Assembly (NCBI GenBank): GCA_043799565.1 | Contig: JAZDNP010000013.1 | Coordinates: 5,847-69,846 of the forward strand | DNA: 64,000 nt | Source of the DNA: Candidatus Brennerbacteria bacterium | GTDB lineage: Bacteria > Patescibacteriota > Minisyncoccia > UBA6257 > GWB1-50-10 | Reading direction: 5' to 3' | Part shown: in pieces, positions 2,326-62,630 of the stretch | Layout: every line of letters begins with the position of its first letter | Numbering within the stretch: position 1 is the stretch's first letter | The notes under the pieces: generated by a model | What the model was told of the DNA's origin: nothing | What the model saw: only the letters and a program-made list of their open reading frames with translations | Database searches by the model: none | Position numbers and translations under genes: made by a program

Positions 2326-2333
2326 CGCCTCTT

Positions 2334-2362
2334 GACTTTTAAAAAGCGTTCTGCTATCATTC
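2334..2362 (+). promoter_or_regulatory. sigma70-like promoter (TTGACT-17-TATCAT)
   Basis: Near-consensus -35 and -10 hexamers with a 17-nt spacer, about 260 nt upstream of tRNA-Leu and the RNase J gene. Confidence 0.35.
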
Positions 2363-2748: not shown

Positions 2749-4626
2749 ATGATGGTAAGTAAAAGTACGGAAGGAAGTCACGGTACCCACCGCGCACCGG
2801 CACATGGGTCTCCTCGCGGAATGGGAGGGGCACGCCTGCCCGCCGATAGGCGCGGTTCGCCGCGCCGTGAGGGCCCCCGGACGCGTGGATTCCACGAAGC
2901 CGCCCGTCCCGCACGGAAAATAACGCACCGCCCTGTTATCACCAATCGCGCGCCTTCGTCGCCCGATGCGGTGCGTTTTGTCGCACTAGGAGGATTGGAG
3001 GAGATCGGAAGGAACATGATGTTCTTTGAGTACAAGGACGAGATCGTGGTCATTGACATGGGGCTCCAGTTCCCCGAGATAGAAACGCCGGGCATTGATT
3101 ACATTATCCCGAACGTCACGTACCTTGAGGAGAAAAAAAAGAATATTAAGGCGGTCATCATCACGCACGGTCACTACGACCACATAGGCGCGATACCTTA
3201 TCTTTTGGAAAAGCTCGGAAACCCTCCGATGTACGCCACGATCCTTACGCGTGAGATTGTGATGAAGCGTCAGGATGATTTCCCGAACTCGCCGAAACCG
3301 AACTTCGTGCTCATTAAGGGCGGCGAAGAGCACAAACTCGGGAACTATTTCTCCGCACGATTTTTTGATGTGGTCCACAACATCCCCGAAGGTATCGGCA
3401 TCATCCTCAAAACGCCTGTGGGGAATGTGCTTCACCCCGGCGAATTTAAGTTTGACTACGACACCGACGGAAAACCAAAAGGTTTGGACACATGGAAGTG
3501 GGCGTGCGAACAGGGCATCCACACCATGATGCTCGATTCCACCGGAGCGGAAACTCCCGGCTACGCGCTCTCGGAGCGCATCGTGGAGGCGGAGCTGGAG
3601 AAGCTATTCAAGACCGCGCCGGGCCGCATCATCGTCGGCACCTTCGCTTCGCTCCTGGACCGCTTGGGCGAAATCGTGAAAATCGCAGAAAAGCTCGGGC
3701 GCAAAGTGGCGCTTTCGGGTTATTCCATGAAATCCAACGTGCAGATCGCTCAGCGGCTCGGCTACTTCAAATTCAACAAGGAAACGATTATTCCGCTTGA
3801 AGAAATAGGGAAATATAAGGACCACGAGATTTTAGTGCTTTCCACGGGCGCGCAGGGTGAACCGAACGCGTCTTTGATGCGTGTCGCGAACGGCGAGCAC
3901 AAACAAATCCGCATCAAGCCGACCGACACGATAGTGCTCTCCTCTTCGGTGGTGCCGGGGAACGAAAAAAGCGTGCAGAACCTGAAAGACAACCTCGCAC
4001 GCTTGGGGGCGACCATCTACCACCACAAAATGTTGGACATCCACTCTTCGGGTCACGCACCGCAGGAAGAGTTGAAAACGGTGATGGGCCTCGTAAAACC
4101 AAAATACTTCCTCCCCATCCACGGGTATTACTTCATGCGGTGGCGGAACGCGAAGCTCGCGCAGGAAGTGATAGGGTTGAAACCCACGGACACGGTGGTG
4201 GCCGACAACGGCCTCGTCGTTGAGATATCGAAAACCGGCATTCGCCTCACCGGCGAAGAGGTGCCTTCGTACTATGTGATGGTGGACGGGCTCGGCGTCG
4301 GCGACGTCGGTGAAGTGGTGCTCCGCGACCGCATTACGCTCGCGCAAGAAGGCATGCTCGTTATCATCATCACGCTCTCTAAGCGCGATGGGCGGATACT
4401 CAAAAACCCCGACATCATCTCACGCGGCTTCATCTACCTTAAAGAGCAACAGGGCCTTTTGGAGGAGATTCGGAAGCACATCCGCGGCATTATCGGACGC
4501 ATTCCCCACTACCAATCGGTGGATGGTGAGTATGTAAAAACGCTCGTCCGCGACCAGATAGGCCAGTTCTTGTTCACCAAGACCAAGCGTAGACCAATGA
4601 TTCTGCCTGTGGTCATAGAGATATAG
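2749..4626 (+). CDS. rnj: ribonuclease J (beta-CASP metallo-beta-lactamase RNase); start uncertain, alternative GTG at 2971
   Basis: HGHYDH motif, beta-CASP and C-terminal domain; the conserved core begins VRFVALGGLEEIGRNMM at 2971. The upstream 74 codons are a GC-rich Arg/Pro/Gly-rich extension. Confidence 0.8.
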   Translation: MMVSKSTEGSHGTHRAPAHGSPRGMGGARLPADRRGSPRREGPRTRGFHEAARPARKITHRPVITNRAPSSPDAVRFVALGGLEEIGRNMMFFEYKDEIVVIDMGLQFPEIETPGIDYIIPNVTYLEEKKKNIKAVIITHGHYDHIGAIPYLLEKLGNPPMYATILTREIVMKRQDDFPNSPKPNFVLIKGGEEHKLGNYFSARFFDVVHNIPEGIGIILKTPVGNVLHPGEFKFDYDTDGKPKGLDTWKWACEQGIHTMMLDSTGAETPGYALSERIVEAELEKLFKTAPGRIIVGTFASLLDRLGEIVKIAEKLGRKVALSGYSMKSNVQIAQRLGYFKFNKETIIPLEEIGKYKDHEILVLSTGAQGEPNASLMRVANGEHKQIRIKPTDTIVLSSSVVPGNEKSVQNLKDNLARLGATIYHHKMLDIHSSGHAPQEELKTVMGLVKPKYFLPIHGYYFMRWRNAKLAQEVIGLKPTDTVVADNGLVVEISKTGIRLTGEEVPSYYVMVDGLGVGDVGEVVLRDRITLAQEGMLVIIITLSKRDGRILKNPDIISRGFIYLKEQQGLLEEIRKHIRGIIGRIPHYQSVDGEYVKTLVRDQIGQFLFTKTKRRPMILPVVIEI

Positions 4627-4635
4627 CCCTCAAAA

Positions 4636-4658
4636 CCCCTCATTTTATGAGGGGTTTT
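4636..4658 (+). terminator. intrinsic terminator after rnj
   Basis: CCCCTCA-TTTTA-TGAGGGG hairpin followed by TTTT. Confidence 0.55.
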
Positions 4659-4664
4659 GGTCTA

Positions 4665-4692
4665 TTGACTTATTTTGTGCATATGGTATACT
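4665..4692 (+). promoter_or_regulatory. strong sigma70-like promoter (TTGACT-16-TATACT)
   Basis: Consensus-like hexamers; drives the ~285-nt untranslated region that ends at the 4945-4983 terminator. Confidence 0.5.
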
Positions 4693-4698
4693 GCAACT

Positions 4699-4983
4699 AG
4701 TAAATTGCTGAGCCAAGACTGTTAGTCCGCCTCCTATCAGCGGAGAGCGCGAAGACACCCGCAGGGAACGAAAATTCCTAATAAGCCGGGCTCCTCATCT
4801 AACCGTCGGATAGAGAACGTTCGGTCCGAACGCAATGGCAATTCTAGACGTTGAGTGGAGCGACAAGTTTTTCAAAGCTCACCGCCTAGGACTCGTCAGA
4901 AACAGACGTCGGCACCGAAGTGTTCTGATGCCTATCATGGAAATGGCCTAGGGAAATCGCTTCCCTAGGCCACTTTGTTTTTA
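4699..4983 (+). ncRNA. unclassified structured RNA of ~285 nt (candidate housekeeping sRNA or leader; family not assignable by eye)
   Basis: No ORF of 60 aa or more. Bounded by a near-consensus promoter and an 11-bp GC-rich terminator hairpin (GGCCTAGGGAA...TTCCCTAGGCC + T-run) with several internal hairpins (CGTTC-GGTCC-GAACG, CTCC-TATCAGC-GGAG). trpS downstream appears to have its own -10 immediately before its ATG. Confidence 0.3.
4945..4983 (+). terminator. intrinsic terminator (11-bp stem, T-run)
   Basis: GGCCTAGGGAA-ATCGC-TTCCCTAGGCC followed by ACTTTGTTTTT. Confidence 0.6.
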
Positions 4984-5020
4984 GTTTTCCGAGGAGGCGA
5001 CTCTGCTCTATACTAACCAT

Positions 5021-6067
5021 ATGAAACCAATCCTAATCTCCGGCATCCAGCCCTCGGGTAAACTCCACCTCGGAAATTACCTTGGGGCATTGAAGCACTT
5101 CGTGGAGCTTCAGAATTCCGGCAAATACCGATGCTTCTTTTTCATCGCGGATCTCCATTCGCTGACCGGAGAATACGCGCCAAAAGAAAAAACGGCACAG
5201 ATTGCGGACCTTATGCGCTCGTACCTCGCCGCAGGCCTCTCTCCAGTTAAGTCCACGCTCTTTCTTCAATCATCCATTCCGGCGCACAGTGAGCTTGCGT
5301 GGATTTTGAATACCATCACGCCAATGGGCGAGCTTCGGCGAATGACACAGTTTAAGGATAAAGCTTCTGATATGGCAAAATCTAAATCAGGAAAAGTGTA
5401 TGAGATTAGTGTTCACGAAAATGCGATGGACCACTGGAAATCATTAATAGATCCGAACGTTGGTCTTTTTAATTACCCCGTCCTCATGGCCGCGGACGTA
5501 CTCCTCTACGACGCGGGTGCGGTGCCGGTGGGCGATGACCAAGACCAACACTTGGAGCTTACACGCACGCTCGCACGGAAATTCAATTCCCGATTTGGCA
5601 AAACCTTTATTGAGCCGAAATCGCTCCACACGGCGGTACCTCGCCTCATGAGCTTGGACGACCCCACAAAAAAGATGTCCAAGTCCCGTCCTGCCGGATG
5701 CCTCTTTATGGACGATTTACCTTTGGTTATACGCGAGAAGCTTGCACATGCGACCACCGATTCGGGACACGAAGTGAAGTATGATGAGAAAAATAAGCCT
5801 GGCATATCCAACCTCCTCACGATTTATTCAGCGCTCACCGACGAGGCGCTACAGTTAACTGTAGCGCGCTATAAGGACAAGGGATACGCGGATTTCAAGC
5901 GCGCCGTGGCGGACGTTGTGGTAAAAGCACTTGCGCCCTACCAAGCTGCAAAGAAAAAACTCTCCTCCCCCACCGCAAAAGCCGCGTTTGCAAAAGGTAA
6001 TAAGGCCGCGATGGTTATCGCGGAAAATAAAATGGTCGAAGTTAAAAAGAAAATTGGGCTAATCTAA
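5021..6067 (+). CDS. trpS: tryptophanyl-tRNA synthetase
   Basis: The class Ic motif QPSGKLHLGNY and KMSKS are both present; 348 aa. TATACT lies 6 nt upstream of the ATG, which makes a leaderless transcript possible. Confidence 0.9.
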   Translation: MKPILISGIQPSGKLHLGNYLGALKHFVELQNSGKYRCFFFIADLHSLTGEYAPKEKTAQIADLMRSYLAAGLSPVKSTLFLQSSIPAHSELAWILNTITPMGELRRMTQFKDKASDMAKSKSGKVYEISVHENAMDHWKSLIDPNVGLFNYPVLMAADVLLYDAGAVPVGDDQDQHLELTRTLARKFNSRFGKTFIEPKSLHTAVPRLMSLDDPTKKMSKSRPAGCLFMDDLPLVIREKLAHATTDSGHEVKYDEKNKPGISNLLTIYSALTDEALQLTVARYKDKGYADFKRAVADVVVKALAPYQAAKKKLSSPTAKAAFAKGNKAAMVIAENKMVEVKKKIGLI

Positions 6068-7047: not shown

Positions 7048-10000
7048 TTAAACCCTCCTTATCGCAAGCCACGCGGGCCAGTCGCCTATCTTCGTCTGGA
7101 GCTCCACATTATGCTTATGGACACGCCCGAATTCCACCGATTTTGCATTCACCTCGCGCATGAATTCCTTCTCCCGCGAACGGATAACATGGGTAAGCTC
7201 CGGCGGCACCTCGCAATAAACTGTAATAACGTCTTTGGGTGTAAGTTTCGCATCCTGACGCATTCCTTGCACCGTACGAGTGAGTTCGCGGAACCAGCCC
7301 TCTTCCAAAAGTTCATGCGTTATCTTTGTATCAAGCGTGGCGCTTTCTTTCACTTTCGGGTCCACTTTCACTGTTTTCACGTTTACCTCATCCGCAAGTA
7401 TGGAGAGTAGCTCTTTCTTTCCTTTCAACGCCGCTGATTTTACAACCATGAATGCGAGCGGCTGGCGCACTTTGATGCTTGCCTCGGCCCGCCTTGCAAG
7501 ACCCACCGACGCAAGTTGTCTTACTTCATCCATCGCCGCAGCCAGCTTTTTATTAATAAGCTTCTTGTCCGCTTTCGGCCACCATTCAAAATGCACGCTC
7601 TCCACCTCCCCTTTCTTATTGGGCACGAGCGATAGGTAAAGGGCTTCCGCAAAGAACGGAGTGAAGGGCGCCATAAGTTTGGTCAATTCCATAAGTGCAT
7701 ATCCGAGCGTGGCAGACGCGGCACGGTAATCTTTATCTCCGCCAGCCGACGGATCCGGCTTCTGAAGGCGCCGGCGCGAGCGCCTGATGTACCACCGCGA
7801 GAGATCGCCCGCGAACACTTCTATCGTACGCGCCGCGTCCCCCACTTCGTATGATTCAAGCGCCTTCGTTGCCGTATCTTTCGTTTCTTCCAAACGCGAA
7901 ATTATCCACTTGTCCAAAACGCCGTTTGCCGTGGGCCGCTTTCCTATTCCCGCATGTTTCTCCGCATACGTATCGTAGAAAAGATAGGAGTTGTAGACCA
8001 TCATCAAGAATTGGCGAAGTGTTTTCCCGATATCCGCTTCGTCAAATTTCTTCGGCTCGCCCGGCGGATTTACGGAGTAAAGGTACCAGCGCACCGCATC
8101 AATGCCGTATTTCTGTATCATCGCCCACGGATCCACCGTGTTCCCTTTTGACTTGCTCATCTTCTGCCCGTTCTTATCCAACACAAGTCCGAGTGAAATG
8201 ACGTTCTTGTACGAGCGCCCCTTGCCCATCAGCACACCTATCGCAAGAAGTGTATAAAACCATCCGCGCGTTTGGTCCACACCTTCACTGATGTAATCCG
8301 CCGGGTATTCTTTCTTTCCCGCCCCCGCAAACGGCATCGCGCCCGAATCGAACCACACGTCCAACACTTCGGGTATACGTTTCATCGTCCCTTTACACTT
8401 CGCGCATGCGAACGTGACGTCATCCACGTACGGGCGGTGGAGATCCGTTCGGCCTTCGGCGTCGCGCGGCAATGTGCCAGTTCGGACGTTATACCTCTCA
8501 CCTGTTTCCGGGTACACGAGTGAAAGTTGAGCTTCATCTGAAACTCCTTCCAGTGTTCCTTTTAATATCCAAAGTGGGTCCCCGTGGCTTACTACGATGA
8601 TGGTTTTCCTTTGATAGCGCTCGTCAATTGACTGGAACGCCTTCCACATCCGCGCGCGGACGTCATTCCACGTTTCCCCGCCGTGCGGATTTTTATCGAA
8701 CATCTCGTGCTCGCCGTTGAAAAGCTTGTAAAAGTCTTCCGTCGGCTTCCCTGCGACTTTTCCCCCGTCCATGTCCCGAAGGTCCGGCTCAACTGCGAGC
8801 GTACCGCCGAGGACTCCCTGTAGTATCTTCCCCGTTTCTTTGGCGCGCGCGAGATTTGAGGTCACAATATAATCCGGCTTCACTTTTTTCATCGCGAGCG
8901 CGGTGCGCCGCACAGCCACTTCACCTTTTTTGATGAGGTGTGAGGTGAACGCCTTGGTGTCTACCGCCGTTCCGCAAAGGCCGAGGACATTGTGGTCCGC
9001 TTCCCCATGCCGCACGAATATGAAAACATTCCGTCCTCCTGCTCGCTCCTGAACCTCTTCCATACTGCCCAAAACCTCCACATGGTCACATTTTTCGCAC
9101 TGCCAGATAGGCAAAGGCGTTCCCCAGTAGCGGGAACGTGAAATGGCCCAATCCTTAACTTCGCGGAGCCATTCACCGAAGCGACCATCGCGAAGATTTG
9201 CGGGAACCCATTTAATCTTCTTGTTCTCCGAAAGCAATTTTGCACGAAGCTTGGACATCGCGATGAACCATGAGTCACGCGCGTAGTAGAGGAGCGGCGT
9301 TTTACACCTCCAGCAGAAGGGGTACTCGTGCGAGTATTTCTCGGTCTTGAAAAGCAGGCCTTTCTTTTCCAAGTGTCCAAATATCTTCTTCTCGGTCTCA
9401 GACGATTTCACGTAGAGTCCCCAAAACCCTTTCACGTCCACGGTAAATTTCCCCGCCTCGTCCACCGTGTGGCGCGCAGGGAGCCCCACTTTCATGCCTA
9501 GTTGATAATCGTCCTCTCCGTACATCACCGCAGTGTGTACCACGCCCGTGCCGTCCTCCGTCGTCACAAAGTTCGCGGGGTACACCCTGTACGAGGTCTT
9601 TGACTTGAGCGAAGGAACATCAAAAAGCGGCTCATATTCTACACCGATCAAATCTTTCCCTTTCATTTCTCCCACAATCTCGTGCGGCTCGGGAATGACC
9701 GCGATACGTTCTTTTGCGAGAATATAAATCTCCTTCCCCCCCTTCACTTTTACGTACGTCGTTTTCTGGTTGATCGCGAGCGCGACATTGCCCGGCAACG
9801 TCCATGGTGTTGTGGTCCACGAGAGAATAAATGCTTTCAATTTTGGCGCGTAGAATTTCACATAAACCGACGTGTCTTCCACCGTCTCGTATCCAAGCGC
9901 AACTTCATGTGATGCGAGCGTAGTACCGCACCGCGTGCACCAATGCACCACCTTGTGGCCGCGGTAGAGAAGTTTTTTCTTCCATACCTCCTTCAATATC

Positions 10001-10479
10001 CCCCACACCGCCTCCATATAGCGGTTCTCATACGTGATGTACGGGTGGTCCATATCCAGCCAGAACCCCATCCGTTCGGTAAGCTTTTCCCACTCATCTT
10101 TGTATTTCCACACCGACTGCTTGCACTGCGCGTTAAAGGCCGCAATGCCGAACTTTTCAATCTCTTTTTTGGACTTCAGTCCCAGCGCCTTCTCCACTTC
10201 TATTTCCACCGGAAGCCCGTGGGTGTCCCACCCTCCGCGCCGCGGCACGTGGAAACCCTGCATCGTTTTGTACCGGAGCATGATGTCCTTGAACGAGCGC
10301 GCGAGTACATGGTGGAGACCCGGGCGGCCATTCGCGGTAGGAGGGCCTTCGTAGAACACGAACGGTTTTCTCTTCGCGGTCCGCGCCAAACTTTTCTTGA
10401 AAACATCGTTCGCCCGCCAGTACGCAAGTACCTTTTCTTCCACCGCGGGGAGCGAAAATTCCTTGAGATTGCGGAGCAT
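7048..10479 (-). CDS. ileS: isoleucyl-tRNA synthetase (type 2 / eukaryote-like) carrying an inserted histidine-phosphatase (PGAM-like) domain
   Basis: Shows PTANG...LHH, a CP1 editing domain, KMSKS, a WQCEKC...CAKC zinc knuckle and the DVWFDSG block. About 190 aa inserted between the two CxxC pairs carry RHGEADHN and VVSHGD histidine-phosphatase motifs. Confidence 0.9.
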   Translation of the reverse strand: MLRNLKEFSLPAVEEKVLAYWRANDVFKKSLARTAKRKPFVFYEGPPTANGRPGLHHVLARSFKDIMLRYKTMQGFHVPRRGGWDTHGLPVEIEVEKALGLKSKKEIEKFGIAAFNAQCKQSVWKYKDEWEKLTERMGFWLDMDHPYITYENRYMEAVWGILKEVWKKKLLYRGHKVVHWCTRCGTTLASHEVALGYETVEDTSVYVKFYAPKLKAFILSWTTTPWTLPGNVALAINQKTTYVKVKGGKEIYILAKERIAVIPEPHEIVGEMKGKDLIGVEYEPLFDVPSLKSKTSYRVYPANFVTTEDGTGVVHTAVMYGEDDYQLGMKVGLPARHTVDEAGKFTVDVKGFWGLYVKSSETEKKIFGHLEKKGLLFKTEKYSHEYPFCWRCKTPLLYYARDSWFIAMSKLRAKLLSENKKIKWVPANLRDGRFGEWLREVKDWAISRSRYWGTPLPIWQCEKCDHVEVLGSMEEVQERAGGRNVFIFVRHGEADHNVLGLCGTAVDTKAFTSHLIKKGEVAVRRTALAMKKVKPDYIVTSNLARAKETGKILQGVLGGTLAVEPDLRDMDGGKVAGKPTEDFYKLFNGEHEMFDKNPHGGETWNDVRARMWKAFQSIDERYQRKTIIVVSHGDPLWILKGTLEGVSDEAQLSLVYPETGERYNVRTGTLPRDAEGRTDLHRPYVDDVTFACAKCKGTMKRIPEVLDVWFDSGAMPFAGAGKKEYPADYISEGVDQTRGWFYTLLAIGVLMGKGRSYKNVISLGLVLDKNGQKMSKSKGNTVDPWAMIQKYGIDAVRWYLYSVNPPGEPKKFDEADIGKTLRQFLMMVYNSYLFYDTYAEKHAGIGKRPTANGVLDKWIISRLEETKDTATKALESYEVGDAARTIEVFAGDLSRWYIRRSRRRLQKPDPSAGGDKDYRAASATLGYALMELTKLMAPFTPFFAEALYLSLVPNKKGEVESVHFEWWPKADKKLINKKLAAAMDEVRQLASVGLARRAEASIKVRQPLAFMVVKSAALKGKKELLSILADEVNVKTVKVDPKVKESATLDTKITHELLEEGWFRELTRTVQGMRQDAKLTPKDVITVYCEVPPELTHVIRSREKEFMREVNAKSVEFGRVHKHNVELQTKIGDWPAWLAIRRV

Positions 10480-13708: not shown

Positions 13709-14146
13709 ATGGCAACGCTATCGGAAAATAGGCAGGCACGGTTTGACTACGATATACAAGAAACGTATACCGCGGGCGTGGTTTTGACGGGCCACGAGGT
13801 GAAGTCCGCGAAGCTCGGGCGGATGGACCTCGCGGGGGCCAAGGCCATCATCCGGGGCGGGGAGGCGTACCTCGTGGGGGCCTCTATTCACTCATTCCAG
13901 CCCGGGAACGCGCCACAGGGGTACGATGAGGCCCGGACGCGGAAACTGCTCCTCTCGCATGCCGAAATCGCTTACTTGACGGGGAAATTGGAAAGTGGTT
14001 TGACGCTAATTCCCTTGAAGGTGTATACTCACCGCGCGCTTGTGAAAATAGAACTGGGGCTCGGGAAAGTGAGAAAGAAGCACGACAAGCGCGAGGTCAT
14101 TAAAAAGCGTGACGTGGAGCGAGAGCTTCGCCGCGCACATAGCTGA
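13709..14146 (+). CDS. smpB: SsrA-binding protein
   Basis: NRQARFDYDIQETYTAGVVLTGHEVKS... signature; 145 aa. Confidence 0.9.
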   Translation: MATLSENRQARFDYDIQETYTAGVVLTGHEVKSAKLGRMDLAGAKAIIRGGEAYLVGASIHSFQPGNAPQGYDEARTRKLLLSHAEIAYLTGKLESGLTLIPLKVYTHRALVKIELGLGKVRKKHDKREVIKKRDVERELRRAHS

Positions 14147-36174: not shown

Positions 36175-36648
36175 ATGAGAATCGTCGGCATTGATCCGGG
36201 GTATGCACGCATCGGATACGCGCTCATTACCGCAAACGGAAACGCGCTTCGTTGTGAAACTATGGGAACGTGGGAGATTCCACCCGCCGCGTCACCTAAG
36301 CGCCTCGCCGAACTCGAATCGGCTCTTTCAGCGTTCCTAAAAGACGCGCATGCAGACCGCATCGGTATAGAGCGCCTCTTCTTTTCCGCGAACAAGCGCA
36401 CCGCGATGGCAGTATCCGAAGCGCGGGGGGTCATCCTTCTCGCGGCGGGAAAGATGGGAGTACCCATCATTGAACTTACCCCCAATGAAGTGAAGCGCGC
36501 CGTTACGGGCGACGGCACCGCTCCCAAGCCCGCAGTCGCGAAAATGGCGAGATGGATACTTCAACTTACCGATACGAAAGGTTTGGACGACACGACCGAC
36601 GCGCTTGCAATAGCCATCGCCACCGCAAAGCCGAATTTGAAGTATTGA
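36175..36648 (+). CDS. ruvC: crossover junction endodeoxyribonuclease RuvC
   Basis: MRIVGIDPGYARIGYAL...; 157 aa with an RNase H-like fold signature. Confidence 0.85.
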   Translation: MRIVGIDPGYARIGYALITANGNALRCETMGTWEIPPAASPKRLAELESALSAFLKDAHADRIGIERLFFSANKRTAMAVSEARGVILLAAGKMGVPIIELTPNEVKRAVTGDGTAPKPAVAKMARWILQLTDTKGLDDTTDALAIAIATAKPNLKY

Positions 36649-36987
36649 CACGCGTTCATCTCTGGCTATACTAGTCACGCATTTATAAAAAGGTCGCTTA
36701 TCATGCTTCTTTTCACATGACCGACACATTGCTCCGCATGACCTACCTCGGCGACGGCATTTCCACCGACGAGGAGGGGACAGAAGACGAAACTGAAAAG
36801 GACGGGGAAGGTCCGTTCTCTCCCCTTCCTGTAGAGGAGGAAATCCCGGAAGTAAAAGACCCCTTAGAAAGTCCCGACGAAGTATAATGGCGGGAGCATT
36901 CCCACGTGCGGCTTTGTGCCTCCGCGAAAGCGCGGAGGCTTTCTGTTTGTTTCTTTCAAGCAGAAAAATCGTTACTATTGAGAAGAC

Positions 36988-39519
36988 ATGATGGGAATCT
37001 TCCAAAAAGCACAAAAGCGGCGCAAGAAGGTTTCGTGGTTGGTTTTTTGGGGATCTTCACTCCTTCTCGCGATGGCAGTAGGCAGTGTGGTATGGGCATT
37101 TTTCACGGTTCAATCCCTCCCCTCGCCCGACAATTTCCGCGAACGCCAAATTAGCCAGTCCACCAAGCTTTACGACCGGACTGGTGAGCACCTTCTCTAT
37201 GAAATCCACGGCAACGAGAAACGCACGGTAATCGCTTTTGAAGAGGTTCCTCTTCACGTTAAAAATGCCACGCTCGCCGCAGAAGATGCGGAATTCTACC
37301 ACCAACCCGCGTTCGACTGGCGCGGTATTCTCCGTGCTTTTATTGCCAACATCCAGGAGGGTCGCACCGTACAGGGCGGCTCGACTATTACCCAGCAGCT
37401 TGCGAAGAACGCGTTTCTCACGTCCGAAAAAACTTACATCCGAAAGATTAAAGAACTTATCCTCGCGCTGGAGTTTGAGGATCAATATTCCAAGGATGAG
37501 ATTTTCGGATTTTATCTGAACCAGATCCCTTACGGCTCCAACGCCTACGGGGTTGAAGCGGCAAGTCAAACCTACTTCGGTAAATCGGTGCGCGCTCTCT
37601 CGCTCGCGGAAGCAGCCACGCTTGCGGCGCTTCTCAAAGCTCCTTCGTATTATTCTCCCTGGGGTTCGCATATCGCCGACCTCATGGCGCGCAAGGACTA
37701 CGTACTGGACCGCATGGCCGAGCTCGGGTTAGTCTCCATGAAAGAGCGCGATGAAACGAAAAAGGTGACGCTCGTATTCGCGCCTCCTTCGCTCGGCACC
37801 ATCGCCGCCCCCCATTTCGCGCTCGCAGTGAAGGAATACCTCGTGGGCCGTTATGGGGAGCAAGTTATTGAGGGTGGGGGACTTAAAGTTATCACCACTC
37901 TTGACGTCGAGCTCCAAAACCTCGCGGAGATCGCGGTAAAAGACGGCTCCGCAAGAAACGTGGAGCTTTATGGAAGCGCAAACGCGTCATTGGTCGCGCA
38001 AGACCCAAAAACTGGCCAGGTACTTGCCGTCGCCGGCTCCAAAGACTACTTTTCACCGCCAGAACCGGAAGGGTGCGCTCCGGGTTCTATCGGCGAAACG
38101 AGCTGCCAATTTGAGGGGAACTTCAATGTCGCGACTCAAGGTCTCCGCCAACCAGGCTCCGCGTTGAAGCCTTTCGTCTACCTTACCGCGTTCGAAAAGG
38201 GATACACGCCGGACACCATACTCTTTGACGTTTCTACGGAATTTGATGTTCGCGATGATCCAGAAACGAGCTATCGGCCCGTAAACTTCGACGGCGCCAC
38301 AAGGGGTCCCGTAAAGATGCAGGACGCGCTCGCGCAATCACTCAACATCCCCGCGGTAAAAACATTGTACCTTGCGGGCTTTGACGATGTTTTAAAAAAA
38401 TTGCACGCGTACGGCATCACTACACTTCAGGAACGTTGGCGCTACGGGCTTTCCCTCACGTTGGGCGGCGGTGAAGTAAAACTTATCGACCTCGTGAATG
38501 CTTACGCTACCCTTTCACAAAGCGGGGTTCGCCACGAACAAGCTCTCGTGCTCCGCGTGGAAGATTCGTCGGGGCGGGTAATCGAAGAATATCACGACAC
38601 CACCAAGCGGGTGGACGATGGGAGCGCCGCAAACCTTATCACGCGTATTCTCTCCGACTCTGACCTCCGCTATCCTATTTTCCGAAGCTCGAATGCTCTC
38701 ACCGTATTCCCCGACTACGAGGTTGCGCTTAAAACCGGCACCAGCGAGGACCATCGCGACGCGTGGACGGTTGGATACACTCCATTTCTTACCGTAGGCG
38801 TCTGGGCAGGAAACAACAACAACCAGGCAATGATACGCCAAGGTTCCAGCATTCTCGCTGCAGTCCCAGTATGGAATGCGTTTATGAAAGAGGCCCTCTT
38901 AAAATACCCTCCCGAACCTTTTACGCGCCCCGCACCGCTCTCTACCCCTTCCAAACCAATGCTTGATGGGAAGTGGAACGTGGTTGCCTCCGGACCGGGC
39001 GGCTCCTTCCCACAGATACACTCGATTCTCTACTACGTGGACCGAAAAAATCCGTTAGGGCCTATCCCGGAGAATCCCGGGAACGATTCACAATTCAAGA
39101 ACTGGGAAGAGTCCGTCATCTCATGGGCAAGTGTCAACATGCCAAATTTCTCCCTATATAACGCCCCACTCCCGGAGGGTGCGGCATTCTCCGGGTCTTC
39201 TTCTCAGATCGCCCCTACCAGAACAACACAACAGGGAGAGTTGTCGGTGGAAAGCTTAACCCCCGCAAATGGCACGTTTTTGGATGGCCCCCTTTCGGTT
39301 GGTGCGACCATACGCGCACGAGACGAAGACCTCTCAAAAGTGGAGCTGTATTTCAATAGGCGCCTGATCCACTCGGTTAATGTGTGGGGAAATACATATC
39401 ACTATCAGTACACCATTCCAATACCGCTCGAACTCCAAAATTCCGTGGAAGTTCGCGCATATACGAGAAGCGGTGTGAGCGCTTCTCGAACCAATGTCTT
39501 CTTCAAATCTGGAGAGTAG
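36988..39519 (+). CDS. class A penicillin-binding protein (glycosyltransferase + transpeptidase)
   Basis: GT51 motifs EDAEFYHQ and GGSTITQQLAKN; transpeptidase GSALKP (SxxK), SxN and KTG. Confidence 0.85.
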   Translation: MMGIFQKAQKRRKKVSWLVFWGSSLLLAMAVGSVVWAFFTVQSLPSPDNFRERQISQSTKLYDRTGEHLLYEIHGNEKRTVIAFEEVPLHVKNATLAAEDAEFYHQPAFDWRGILRAFIANIQEGRTVQGGSTITQQLAKNAFLTSEKTYIRKIKELILALEFEDQYSKDEIFGFYLNQIPYGSNAYGVEAASQTYFGKSVRALSLAEAATLAALLKAPSYYSPWGSHIADLMARKDYVLDRMAELGLVSMKERDETKKVTLVFAPPSLGTIAAPHFALAVKEYLVGRYGEQVIEGGGLKVITTLDVELQNLAEIAVKDGSARNVELYGSANASLVAQDPKTGQVLAVAGSKDYFSPPEPEGCAPGSIGETSCQFEGNFNVATQGLRQPGSALKPFVYLTAFEKGYTPDTILFDVSTEFDVRDDPETSYRPVNFDGATRGPVKMQDALAQSLNIPAVKTLYLAGFDDVLKKLHAYGITTLQERWRYGLSLTLGGGEVKLIDLVNAYATLSQSGVRHEQALVLRVEDSSGRVIEEYHDTTKRVDDGSAANLITRILSDSDLRYPIFRSSNALTVFPDYEVALKTGTSEDHRDAWTVGYTPFLTVGVWAGNNNNQAMIRQGSSILAAVPVWNAFMKEALLKYPPEPFTRPAPLSTPSKPMLDGKWNVVASGPGGSFPQIHSILYYVDRKNPLGPIPENPGNDSQFKNWEESVISWASVNMPNFSLYNAPLPEGAAFSGSSSQIAPTRTTQQGELSVESLTPANGTFLDGPLSVGATIRARDEDLSKVELYFNRRLIHSVNVWGNTYHYQYTIPIPLELQNSVEVRAYTRSGVSASRTNVFFKSGE

Positions 39520-51143: not shown

Positions 51144-53114
51144 TTACGGCGTGCTAGGAGGTGGTGATGGTGGTGGAGGCGGTGCGGCTGCCGGTGTTGC
51201 GGGCGCCGCCGCGGTCCCTGTGTCGTAGAGACGGAGCGAAGCAATTTGGTTTTGCACTTTAGCGAGCTTGTCTGCTGCTTTCACATTCCCTTCAGCGATA
51301 AGTTGCGCTCCGACCGCATCAATCGTCACATCGAGTCGTTCAAACCCTGCGCCTTTGACGTTCCGGAAGAGCTTTGCGACGTCGGCAGGTACATTCACTG
51401 CGATTCCATGTACGAGCGCTTGGCGGAAGGCATCGCTCATTTCTTTCGTCGTGCCCGCCCCTAACTGTTCGATGATCGCTTTTCCAAAAGTGTCGTTTGT
51501 TGGGAGCTTCGGGATTTCATCCGGTTTGAGTTTCTCGATCCACGCCGCCATTGCATCGTCGAGTTTCTTTTTATCCTCCGGCTTTGACATATCACCAGAT
51601 CTCAATATATCGGCAGATGCGAGATCCATACCTGCGGCGACCTCAAACCCTTTCCACTGCCGCGATTCCTTTCCATAGTACGACTCGAAAACCTCCTTGT
51701 TCTTTTGCGTCACATTACCCAGTACATCAGGTTTCCCAGTAGTGCGATTTTGAATGAGTCCCACCGTGCCATTTTTCGCGAGGCGCTCCATAGCGGCGAC
51801 TTTCTCTGGAGCGGAAAGCGTATCCAGGTTTTTAGCAAGATGCGCATCCCCGTATTTCTTGAGCCGTTTGTCGGCATCATCGACAAGCCCGCGTCGCAGA
51901 ACGTCTGCCTGACCGCCTAACGCCATTCCCATGCGCTTAAAGCCTGGAATCCGCTGCAGCCTGCCTGCAAGGCCGGTTCCAAGCTTGGACTCGAGCGCTC
52001 GAGCGCCAGCTTGTTTTGCCTGTCTACCTGCCCACGCTTGGGCACCAGTCTTAGCTTTGTTTGCGATGGCCATACCAATATTTGCTCCCGCAACTCCCAT
52101 TTTCTGCGCAACGATGAGTCCACCAAGCATAATGCCAGCGAGTACAAACATTTGAACACCTTGGGACATGATGCTTATGAGGCCCGCATCAAAAAAATTG
52201 GAACCATCTGCAACGGGCGCAGGTTTTCCTCCCATAGCTTCCAGTGCCGCGAATGCGAGGTAGATGAAAAACGTTGCGATGGGTGCAAAAGTGGCCCACT
52301 TAATAAAATCTTTCCACCAATCTTGGAAGTAGTTTCCGAGGTTCGGCATGACCCAGAAGAGCCATATGATGGGTGCGGTAATACCGAGGAAGGTGAGATG
52401 CAGGTAGCGGAGCAGCAGCATAATAGCAAAAGTGCCGACGACCACAACGCTCAAAAATACGAATACGACATTAAAAATTTGGCCGGCGATGAGATTGAAA
52501 AGTCCTGCGCCGAAAGTACTGATGGCGCCTGCGGCACTTTCGAAGTTTTGCGGGTCGTTTAATCGCTGGGGATTGAATGCGCCTGCGAGCGCGGCGCCGA
52601 GGCCGTTAGGACTCGGAATCCGGTTGAGGAAAAATGCGGTAAAAACGTTCGTGAACTGAAGCACCGCGCCTGCGATCGCAAGCGAGAAATTCACTAGAAT
52701 TGCCGCCGCAATGAGCCGGACCAAAAGCTTCTGGCTTCCATATTTTTCAACGCGAAACATTACACCGAAAGCGATGACGATAATAATAAGCACGAACCCG
52801 AGATTTGCGAGGTCGCGCATAATCTCCCATCCGATTTCAACAAGCTTGTTCTGCGGGTCGAACACTTGGAGGTTCAGATCCATCATGATCCCCGCGATCC
52901 ACGAAAAAAGATTCAGCACGAGTCCTCCGAGGAACCCAATGATGTATGCAACCACGCCAAACGCTTTCCCTATGACGTAACCGGCAATATCACCGATATT
53001 AAAAAGATCGCCGAGGAAGGATGTTTGTGCGTGGGCTGCGAGTGGAAACGCAAGTATTCCTCCTGCAATAAGGAGGAAGAAGAACACGCGAGAATATGAG
53101 GAAAACAATTTCAT
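51144..53114 (-). CDS. VirB6/TrbL-like polytopic membrane protein
   Basis: Signal peptide, then about eight TM helices and a large C-terminal soluble region. Start taken at MKLFSSY; the track ORF extends 36 codons upstream. Confidence 0.5.
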   Translation of the reverse strand: MKLFSSYSRVFFFLLIAGGILAFPLAAHAQTSFLGDLFNIGDIAGYVIGKAFGVVAYIIGFLGGLVLNLFSWIAGIMMDLNLQVFDPQNKLVEIGWEIMRDLANLGFVLIIIVIAFGVMFRVEKYGSQKLLVRLIAAAILVNFSLAIAGAVLQFTNVFTAFFLNRIPSPNGLGAALAGAFNPQRLNDPQNFESAAGAISTFGAGLFNLIAGQIFNVVFVFLSVVVVGTFAIMLLLRYLHLTFLGITAPIIWLFWVMPNLGNYFQDWWKDFIKWATFAPIATFFIYLAFAALEAMGGKPAPVADGSNFFDAGLISIMSQGVQMFVLAGIMLGGLIVAQKMGVAGANIGMAIANKAKTGAQAWAGRQAKQAGARALESKLGTGLAGRLQRIPGFKRMGMALGGQADVLRRGLVDDADKRLKKYGDAHLAKNLDTLSAPEKVAAMERLAKNGTVGLIQNRTTGKPDVLGNVTQKNKEVFESYYGKESRQWKGFEVAAGMDLASADILRSGDMSKPEDKKKLDDAMAAWIEKLKPDEIPKLPTNDTFGKAIIEQLGAGTTKEMSDAFRQALVHGIAVNVPADVAKLFRNVKGAGFERLDVTIDAVGAQLIAEGNVKAADKLAKVQNQIASLRLYDTGTAAAPATPAAAPPPPPSPPPSTP

Positions 53115-62084: not shown

Positions 62085-62630
62085 TTATTTCGCCTGCCGC
62101 GCCGTTCCTTTCTCCTTCCGCTCCCGGATCTTCAAAAGAATACGTGGAATGGTTTCAATGTCGGTGAATCGGTCGACCGATTCTTTGAGTTTCGCCGAGG
62201 CACTTCTCCGAAACGCGACTGCCTCCACCTGGCGCCCGAGTCCCCACTTCAGGTATTCCACGAGCGGCACAAAATCGCCGTCGCCGGTAACAAGAATGAT
62301 GGCGTCAACGCTGGAAGCCAAACGTACCGCATCTATCGCCATGCCGATGTCCCAATCCGCTTTTTTGGACCCATCGGGATAGATTTGAAGGTCCTTCAAG
62401 CGAAGCTCAAATCCCGTCTGTTTCAGCGCTTCAAAAAACGATTCCTCACCGAGCGCGGTGTCGCTTTTCACCACGTACGCGACGGCGCGAAGCAAAGGAC
62501 GGTTTCCCACCGCCACCCGGAGGAGTTCTTTGAAATTTACGCGCGCGTGATAAAGATTTTTCGCGGAATGATAGACATTCTGGACATCCACGAATATCGC
62601 TACCCGCTGATCGGAGTATGGAACGGCCAT
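62085..62630 (-). CDS. NYN-domain (LabA-like) putative nuclease
   Basis: IFVDVQNVY... and LVTGDGDF motifs. It sits between rpsO and pnp. Confidence 0.6.
   Translation of the reverse strand: MAVPYSDQRVAIFVDVQNVYHSAKNLYHARVNFKELLRVAVGNRPLLRAVAYVVKSDTALGEESFFEALKQTGFELRLKDLQIYPDGSKKADWDIGMAIDAVRLASSVDAIILVTGDGDFVPLVEYLKWGLGRQVEAVAFRRSASAKLKESVDRFTDIETIPRILLKIRERKEKGTARQAK

Follow-up and report, generated by a model that had tools for sequence, protein, structure and literature searches.

A promoter-to-terminator unit between rnj and trpS of a Candidatus Brennerbacteria bacterium as a candidate stand-alone small RNA gene

Results

Architecture of the rnj-trpS intergenic region

The locus considered here lies in a stretch of 64,000 nt from contig JAZDNP010000013.1 of a Candidatus Brennerbacteria bacterium, called the window below, and all positions refer to it unless a locus is named. 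The TrpRS that it encodes (5021-6067) is identical to P0001, a protein annotated in a Candidatus Brennerbacteria MAG, which places the window in a CPR/Paceibacteria genome. The local gene order is a gene for an SBP_bac_5 protein, tRNA-Leu (2619-2702), rnj (ending at 4626), the unit under study, trpS (5021-6067), a gene for a TM2 protein, two small genes and ileS on the minus strand, and the same order is kept in relatives. The rnj terminator hairpin (4631-4659, plus strand) is a perfect 13-bp inverted repeat followed by TTTTGG, with terminator-like matches.

A preliminary description of this DNA, made from the letters alone, had placed a promoter-to-terminator unit of ~285 nt between rnj and trpS, and the anatomy is real. 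The near-consensus sigma70 promoter that it named, TTGACT-16-TATACT, is present at 4665-4692 (plus strand) and consists of TTGACT (4665-4670), a 16-nt spacer and TATACT (4687-4692), with TGg before the -10 box (TG-n-TATACT). This promoter, P1, matches the TTGACA/TATAAT consensus at 10 of 12 positions; when the window was scanned against that consensus, TATACT being additionally allowed, only 11 sites on both strands (128 kb of strand sequence) reached the cut-off of at least 10/12. At the other end, an intrinsic terminator (4944-4986, plus strand) is formed by a stem-loop (4944-4972; loop of 5 nt) and the U-rich tail CTTTGTTTTT, with a hairpin energy of -21.8 kcal/mol. The “11-bp GC stem” of the preliminary description is a stem of 12 bp with seven GC pairs, which we regard as close enough. 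With a start near 4699, taken as 7 nt past the -10 box, and an end near 4980-4985, the predicted RNA would measure ~280-285 nt, its body spanning 4699-4943 (plus strand) without a credible ORF.

The window contains further near-consensus promoters. Among the sites with at least 10/12 matches, one (14000-14029, plus strand) lies within the ORF preceding tmRNA, ~120 nt ahead of the tmRNA gene. Near-consensus promoters were also seen at 62934-62906 (minus strand), ~275 nt ahead of the gene start at 62630 (minus strand), and at 2332-2360 (plus strand), ~260 nt upstream of tRNA-Leu; the long untranslated stretches after these two might hold further RNAs. A perfect 12/12 promoter is found at 36645-36672 (plus strand), upstream of the gene at 36988. 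The octamers CATATGGT (4680-4687) and ACCATATG (5016-5023) were considered as a terminal inverted repeat marking a mobile-element end and rejected, as the match of 8 nt is at chance level and contains the palindrome CATATG.

The earlier statement that the unit has no ORF holds almost entirely: both strands do contain ORFs of 34-44 aa, but none is credible. All of them lack a Shine-Dalgarno (SD) sequence, neither the ORFs nor the six-frame peptides of the unit had a Pfam match, and a search with the concatenated translations against 5.8 billion proteins gave no relative, even at E<=10; these peptide searches served both as a proxy for nucleotide homologues and as a pseudogene test. The 38-codon ORF at 4835-4951 (plus strand) has one Trp codon, and its end, ATG GAA ATG GCC TAG (4937-4951), lies inside the 5' arm of the terminator. 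It is probably not translated. A search of the unit for tRNA or tmRNA found neither.

The start of trpS

Downstream of the terminator, trpS has its own -10 box (5009-5023 with the start, plus strand): TATACT at 5009-5014 is followed after 6 nt by the ATG at 5021, with no adjacent SD, as had been described. TATACT stands 6-9 nt ahead of the trpS ATG, again without SD, in the related loci L161, L163, L164, L168 and L169, and the same position holds TAGAAT in L167 and TACAAT in L166. Since the box is also conserved in relatives that do not carry the unit, trpS is probably leaderless and transcribed from its own promoter, as the preliminary description had proposed, and the unit is not needed as a trpS leader. 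The -35 region of this proximal promoter is poor in the window. TATAAT or TATACT 6-9 nt before an ATG without SD is also found at the gene starts 59977, 55983 and 27373 (all minus strand), a pattern suggesting that this genome has many leaderless mRNAs.

Two observations on trpS itself may be added. The TrpRS of the window has an internal insertion of ~22 aa, SGKVYEISVHENAMDHWKSLIDP, which among the best 40 homologues examined is common only to P0019, whose locus (L170) is without the RNA unit. Further, the distant relative L042 carries UGGGGA three times in tandem, with a period of 9 nt, immediately upstream of trpS (~2490-2520), which could be a protein- or ribosome-binding array.

Predicted fold

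The body of the RNA (4699-4943) folds like shuffled sequence, with z-scores of -0.54 (plus strand) and -0.09 (minus strand), so the “many local hairpins” noted earlier do not go beyond chance; the z=-2.4 of the whole unit is due to the terminator. The minimum free energy (MFE) fold consists of two domains plus the terminator, with internal loops of at most 6 nt and no central bubble. A long imperfect hairpin at 4803-4940 (plus strand) is confined to the 3' half of the body (4801-4943, z=-1.85), and there the MFE and centroid structures are nearly identical. A body without unusual structure is more in line with a base-pairing small RNA than with a ribozyme or riboswitch.

An anti-SD-like element complementary to a site past the terminator had also been pointed out. 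The pair exists as a perfect 8-nt complementarity between CGCCTCCT (4728-4735) and AGGAGGCG (4992-4999), the latter within the SD-like GAGGAGGCG (4991-4999, plus strand) in the trpS promoter spacer, 24 nt ahead of the ATG. The pairing does not exceed chance, however, with two perfect 8-nt pairs within 461 nt against ~1.6 expected by our own estimate, and the 3' partner is located past the terminator.

Searches for known RNA families

The Infernal/Rfam covariance scan suggested in the preliminary description covered 37 related loci besides the window and the unit, both at gathering thresholds and with a cut-off of E<=10. In the window it returned tmRNA and two tRNAs; a sub-threshold fluoride-riboswitch match at 52476-52538 was discarded as a false positive because it falls within a 692-aa ORF on the other strand. 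In the unit (searched as 4550-5100 and as 4693-4990), neither mode gave any match to the models of T-box, RNase P (RF00010/RF00011), SRP (RF00169/RF01854) or 6S RNA (RF00013 and relatives).

The permissive mode was validated by a divergent T-box at locus L086, which scored 43.7 bits (E=2e-8). That element is obvious, with AAGGGUGGUACCACGG followed by a terminator, and still falls below the gathering score of 93 bits; gathering thresholds thus miss real T-boxes of CPR (Patescibacteria) genomes, which calls for sub-threshold searches backed by a positive control. The T-box leaders of the metagenome loci L086 (1821-2215) and L087 (~2330-2790, found by motif scan only) lie 0.35-0.85 kb upstream of trpS, in L086 with a small ORF in between, and their homology to each other is clear (alignment score 558 vs ~263 for shuffles). 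Homology of the unit to these leaders was rejected, the resemblance (CCGGGCUCCUC...UAACC...GGAUA) being at shuffle level.

Motif searches agreed with the models. Contiguous T-box sequences occur upstream of trpS in 10 loci, several with GAAUGG(A/G)C specifier loops, whereas the contiguous T-box sequence AGGGUGGNACCGCG (UGGN bulge) is absent from 4665-4986 at up to three mismatches. By eye, CAA-UGG-C can be seen at 4835-4843 after AGAGAA and a 6-bp hairpin, with no distal platform and no model support. At 4853-4891 (plus strand), GAGTGGAG ... TCACCGCCTAGGA are the only motifs shared with the unit of L168 and, when joined, resemble the T-box sequence: GAGUGG and CACCGC correspond to the two halves of GGGUGG-C-ACCGC and stand 16-21 nt apart. 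This split GAGUGG...CACCGC pattern occurs 12 times in the 2.1 Mb of sequence searched, and the helices around it do not reproduce an antiterminator. When the 3' arm of the terminator was withheld, the best other partner of the 5' arm reached only ~-4 kcal/mol, compared with -21.8 for the terminator; termination therefore looks constitutive. A T-box variant, which the preliminary description had kept as an option, is thus not supported: no T-box model match at E<=10 in the unit or in L168 despite the L086 control, no contiguous T-box sequence and no antiterminator in the unit.

The housekeeping RNAs that it had also named fared no better. The RNase P motifs CR-I (GAGGAAAGUCCGGGC) and CR-V (ACAGAANCCGGCUUA) are absent from the unit, and the SRP domain IV motif GGUCCGGAAGGAAGCAGC from the whole window, each at up to three mismatches. 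A 6S RNA is disfavored by a fold without rod and central bubble, and RNase P by the size of the unit, the missing P4 strands, a z-score near zero and an unrelated unit of 165 nt in L168.

Distribution of the unit among related loci

In the closest relatives (L161, L163, L164 and L167; TrpRS 72-75% identical), the rnj-trpS spacer measures 63-102 nt and contains nothing but the terminator of rnj and the promoter of trpS. The unit is likewise missing from L170, L172/L173 and L174. Nine related loci lack it, the spacers of the closest relatives spanning 34-102 nt in loci that are otherwise syntenic, and most of the 32 loci with adjacent rnj and trpS are without it. Searches of the unit with blastn and nhmmer against 175 loci gave no match, nor did searches of phage and plasmid collections or of viral contigs, the latter with three 18-20-mers. 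The preliminary description had named the lack of both a covariance-model match and conservation upstream of trpS as findings against its reading, and this is largely what we found: no model matches the unit, and the region is not conserved in the nearest relatives.

At the more distant locus L168 (TrpRS 66% identical), a comparable unit of ~165 nt occupies the same site, with TTGACA-16-TGcTATACT, a body of ~130 nt, a terminator and then TATACT-6-ATG. The two promoters with their flanks are identical at ~38 of 43 positions. The promoter of the unrelated L086 T-box leader is equally similar, so this likeness may reflect the promoter consensus only. The bodies have in common only GAGTGGAG and TCACCGC(n)TAGGA; their similarity is not significant, with p~0.06 in a test for colinear matches and local alignments not above shuffles. 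Locus L118 (331-470), where trpS is likewise leaderless, may hold a third, weaker promoter-RNA-hairpin unit in the rnj-trpS spacer: its promoter-like element reads TTGAAA-15-TGcTATTAT, and its hairpin has a stem of 13 bp, a loop of 23 nt and a short U-run, neither feature being called by the consensus scanner.

The spacer also takes up unrelated DNA. A gene with a PaaX_M domain lies in it in L166 (1464-2300) and, in the opposite orientation, in L169 (633-1385), where palindromes of ~33 nt, CTGTATACAATCTCACGATCGTGAGATTGTATA and a variant of it, stand on either side of the gene. In L166, a duplicated 27-nt fragment of the trpS 5' end directly follows the rnj stop codon. These insertions and the duplication mark the rnj-trpS spacer as a recurrent insertion site. 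The unit shows no similarity to the PaaX_M genes and is not a remnant of such a cassette.

A candidate antisense stretch against ileS

Potential targets were searched by ungapped complementarity scoring, as duplex folding gave unrealistic duplexes with long loops. The best antisense match among 49 gene 5' regions of the window pairs a stretch of 21 nt (4759-4779, plus strand) with positions +17 to +37 of the ileS mRNA (window 10443-10463; codons 6-13), at 19 of 21 positions and with 11 contiguous pairs. The stretch is mostly unpaired in the MFE fold, 4767-4777 entirely so. This match, found post hoc, was equalled in 2 of 60 shuffles (p~0.03) and is not an outlier across all strands, a better match to a non-mRNA strand existing elsewhere in the window; we regard 4759-4779 as a weak candidate seed against ileS. 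The unit is not a remnant of the ileS 5' end, with which it has in common only the 6 aa EFSFPA.

The product of ileS (7048-10479, minus strand) has a feature of its own: the IleRS of the window contains a histidine-phosphatase domain (PF00300, His_Phos_1) inserted between two tRNA-synt_1 segments, including an RHG motif (FIFVRHGEADHN). The same insertion is found in the IleRS of L161, L163, L164, L166, L168, L170, L172 and L174.

Discussion

The best-supported reading of the unit is a stand-alone RNA gene, as the preliminary description had preferred over a T-box attenuator: it is discrete, has its own promoter and terminator, lacks a credible coding frame and an antiterminator, and is separate from the promoter of trpS. 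More specifically, we put the probability at about one half that it is a separate non-coding gene of ~280 nt for a constitutively terminated, fast-evolving and lineage-restricted small RNA. Its transcription, the position of its ends and any regulatory role are what we infer from the sequence. The predicted RNA would start at a strong sigma-70-type promoter of its own and always end at its own intrinsic terminator, and the unit would owe its place between the rnj terminator and the conserved leaderless trpS promoter to insertion or retention in only a few lineages of this Paceibacteria group. It would stand outside described RNA families and change fast in sequence. If active at all, it would most likely pair, as a small regulatory RNA, with other transcripts via a short unpaired stretch, for which the start of the ileS coding region is the best candidate in the window.

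In kind, such a unit is ordinary. With trans-acting, base-pairing intergenic sRNAs it has in common a sigma-70 promoter of its own, the lack of an ORF, a strong intrinsic (Rho-independent) terminator, a length within 50-400 nt, rapid sequence turnover, a patchy occurrence across relatives and a short, accessible stretch with complementarity to an mRNA 5' coding region. It differs from typical representatives in being a predicted RNA with a candidate seed, in its length of ~280 nt, which is on the long side, and in its host, a member of the CPR.

Two rivals are serious. The first, which we consider unlikely, is a functionless scar, i.e., 320 nt of leftover foreign or decayed DNA at the insertion hot spot, whose ends may yield a neutral transcript. 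Such a scar would account for the absence of the unit from all closest relatives with their spacers of 34-102 nt, for a body that folds like shuffled sequence and for the lack of conservation between the bodies of the window and L168, and the same spacer received the PaaX_M cassettes of L166 and L169 and, in L166, the duplicated trpS fragment. However, chance is unlikely to preserve a near-consensus promoter with an extended -10 box together with a perfect terminator in a genome this compact, L168 shows the same architecture again, and no similarity to the PaaX cassette, phages, plasmids, viral contigs or any protein betrays a foreign origin.

The second, to which we give a rather small probability, is a non-classical cis-acting leader or attenuator of trpS, possibly a highly derived or decayed T-box. 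Transcripts from P1 would either stop at the terminator or read into trpS, depending on tRNA-Trp, Trp or the translation of a tiny uORF overlapping the 5' arm of the terminator. The position of the unit immediately upstream of trpS on the same strand, the analogous units of L168 and, less clearly, L118, and the poor -35 region of the proximal promoter would all suit such a device, as would the fact that the only two motifs shared with L168, GAGUGG(AG) and (U)CACCGC, match the halves of GGGUGG-C-ACCGC from trpS T-boxes. Likewise, short ORFs of the form AUGGAR...UAR-GG are present in all three units and abut the 5' arm of the terminator in the window and L118, although that of the window has neither an in-frame Trp codon nor an SD. 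What speaks against an attenuator is that no T-box model matched at E<=10 despite the positive control, that we found no antiterminator excluding the terminator, that the helix around the motif in L168 does not overlap its terminator, that similarity to the L086 and L087 leaders is lacking and that most relatives conserve the trpS -10 box without any leader.

T-box leaders (RF00230) resemble the unit in their position upstream of an aminoacyl-tRNA synthetase gene on the same strand, the terminator at the end, UGG triplets and the two T-box sequence halves. In the unit, these halves are ~20 nt apart, and it differs further by the apparent lack of Stem I and of a GAA-UGG-R specifier loop, by the lack of an antiterminator overlapping the terminator and of any model score, as well as by the separate leaderless promoter of trpS downstream of the terminator. 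Leader-peptide attenuators, such as E. coli trpL and pheM or Streptomyces trpRS1, likewise feature a short ORF before a terminator that precedes a Trp-related gene, and in the unit the stop codon of this ORF (4835-4951) falls in the terminator 5' arm. Here, however, the single Trp codon lies 90 nt before the terminator, and tandem regulatory codons, an SD, an alternative (competing) 2:3 hairpin and conservation of the ORF in L168 are all missing; a leader-peptide attenuator is not supported.

A more speculative proposal, which we consider improbable, is that the units of the window and L168 represent a new kind of much-reduced, T-box-derived element responsive to Trp or tRNA-Trp, with the UGG and CACC parts of the acceptor-binding bulge split by an inserted hairpin, or else a terminated RNA acting in trans on the ileS mRNA.

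A very divergent housekeeping RNA (6S-like, or a reduced RNase P or SRP) missed by the Rfam models is highly improbable: the promoter is comparable to the best of the window, one of which lies upstream of tmRNA, no RNase P, SRP or 6S gene was found elsewhere in the 64 kb, and the RNase P RNAs of CPR bacteria can be very divergent and fall below Rfam thresholds (PMC8172020), but no model matched at E<=10, the CR-I, CR-V and SRP domain IV motifs are absent from the unit, its z-score is near zero, its fold lacks rod and central bubble, the unit of L168 at the same position has only ~165 nt of unrelated sequence, and the unit is not conserved at the locus. The specific identities as T-box, 6S, SRP or RNase P are consequently not supported.

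To our knowledge, the regulatory RNAs of the CPR (Patescibacteria) are almost uncharted, and we know of no characterised sRNA regulator in this group. With its strong promoter and clean terminator beside a leaderless synthetase gene, the predicted orphan RNA offers metatranscriptome studies a concrete candidate to check. If the suggested action in trans on ileS proved true, it would link the expression of two aminoacyl-tRNA synthetase genes in a CPR bacterium.
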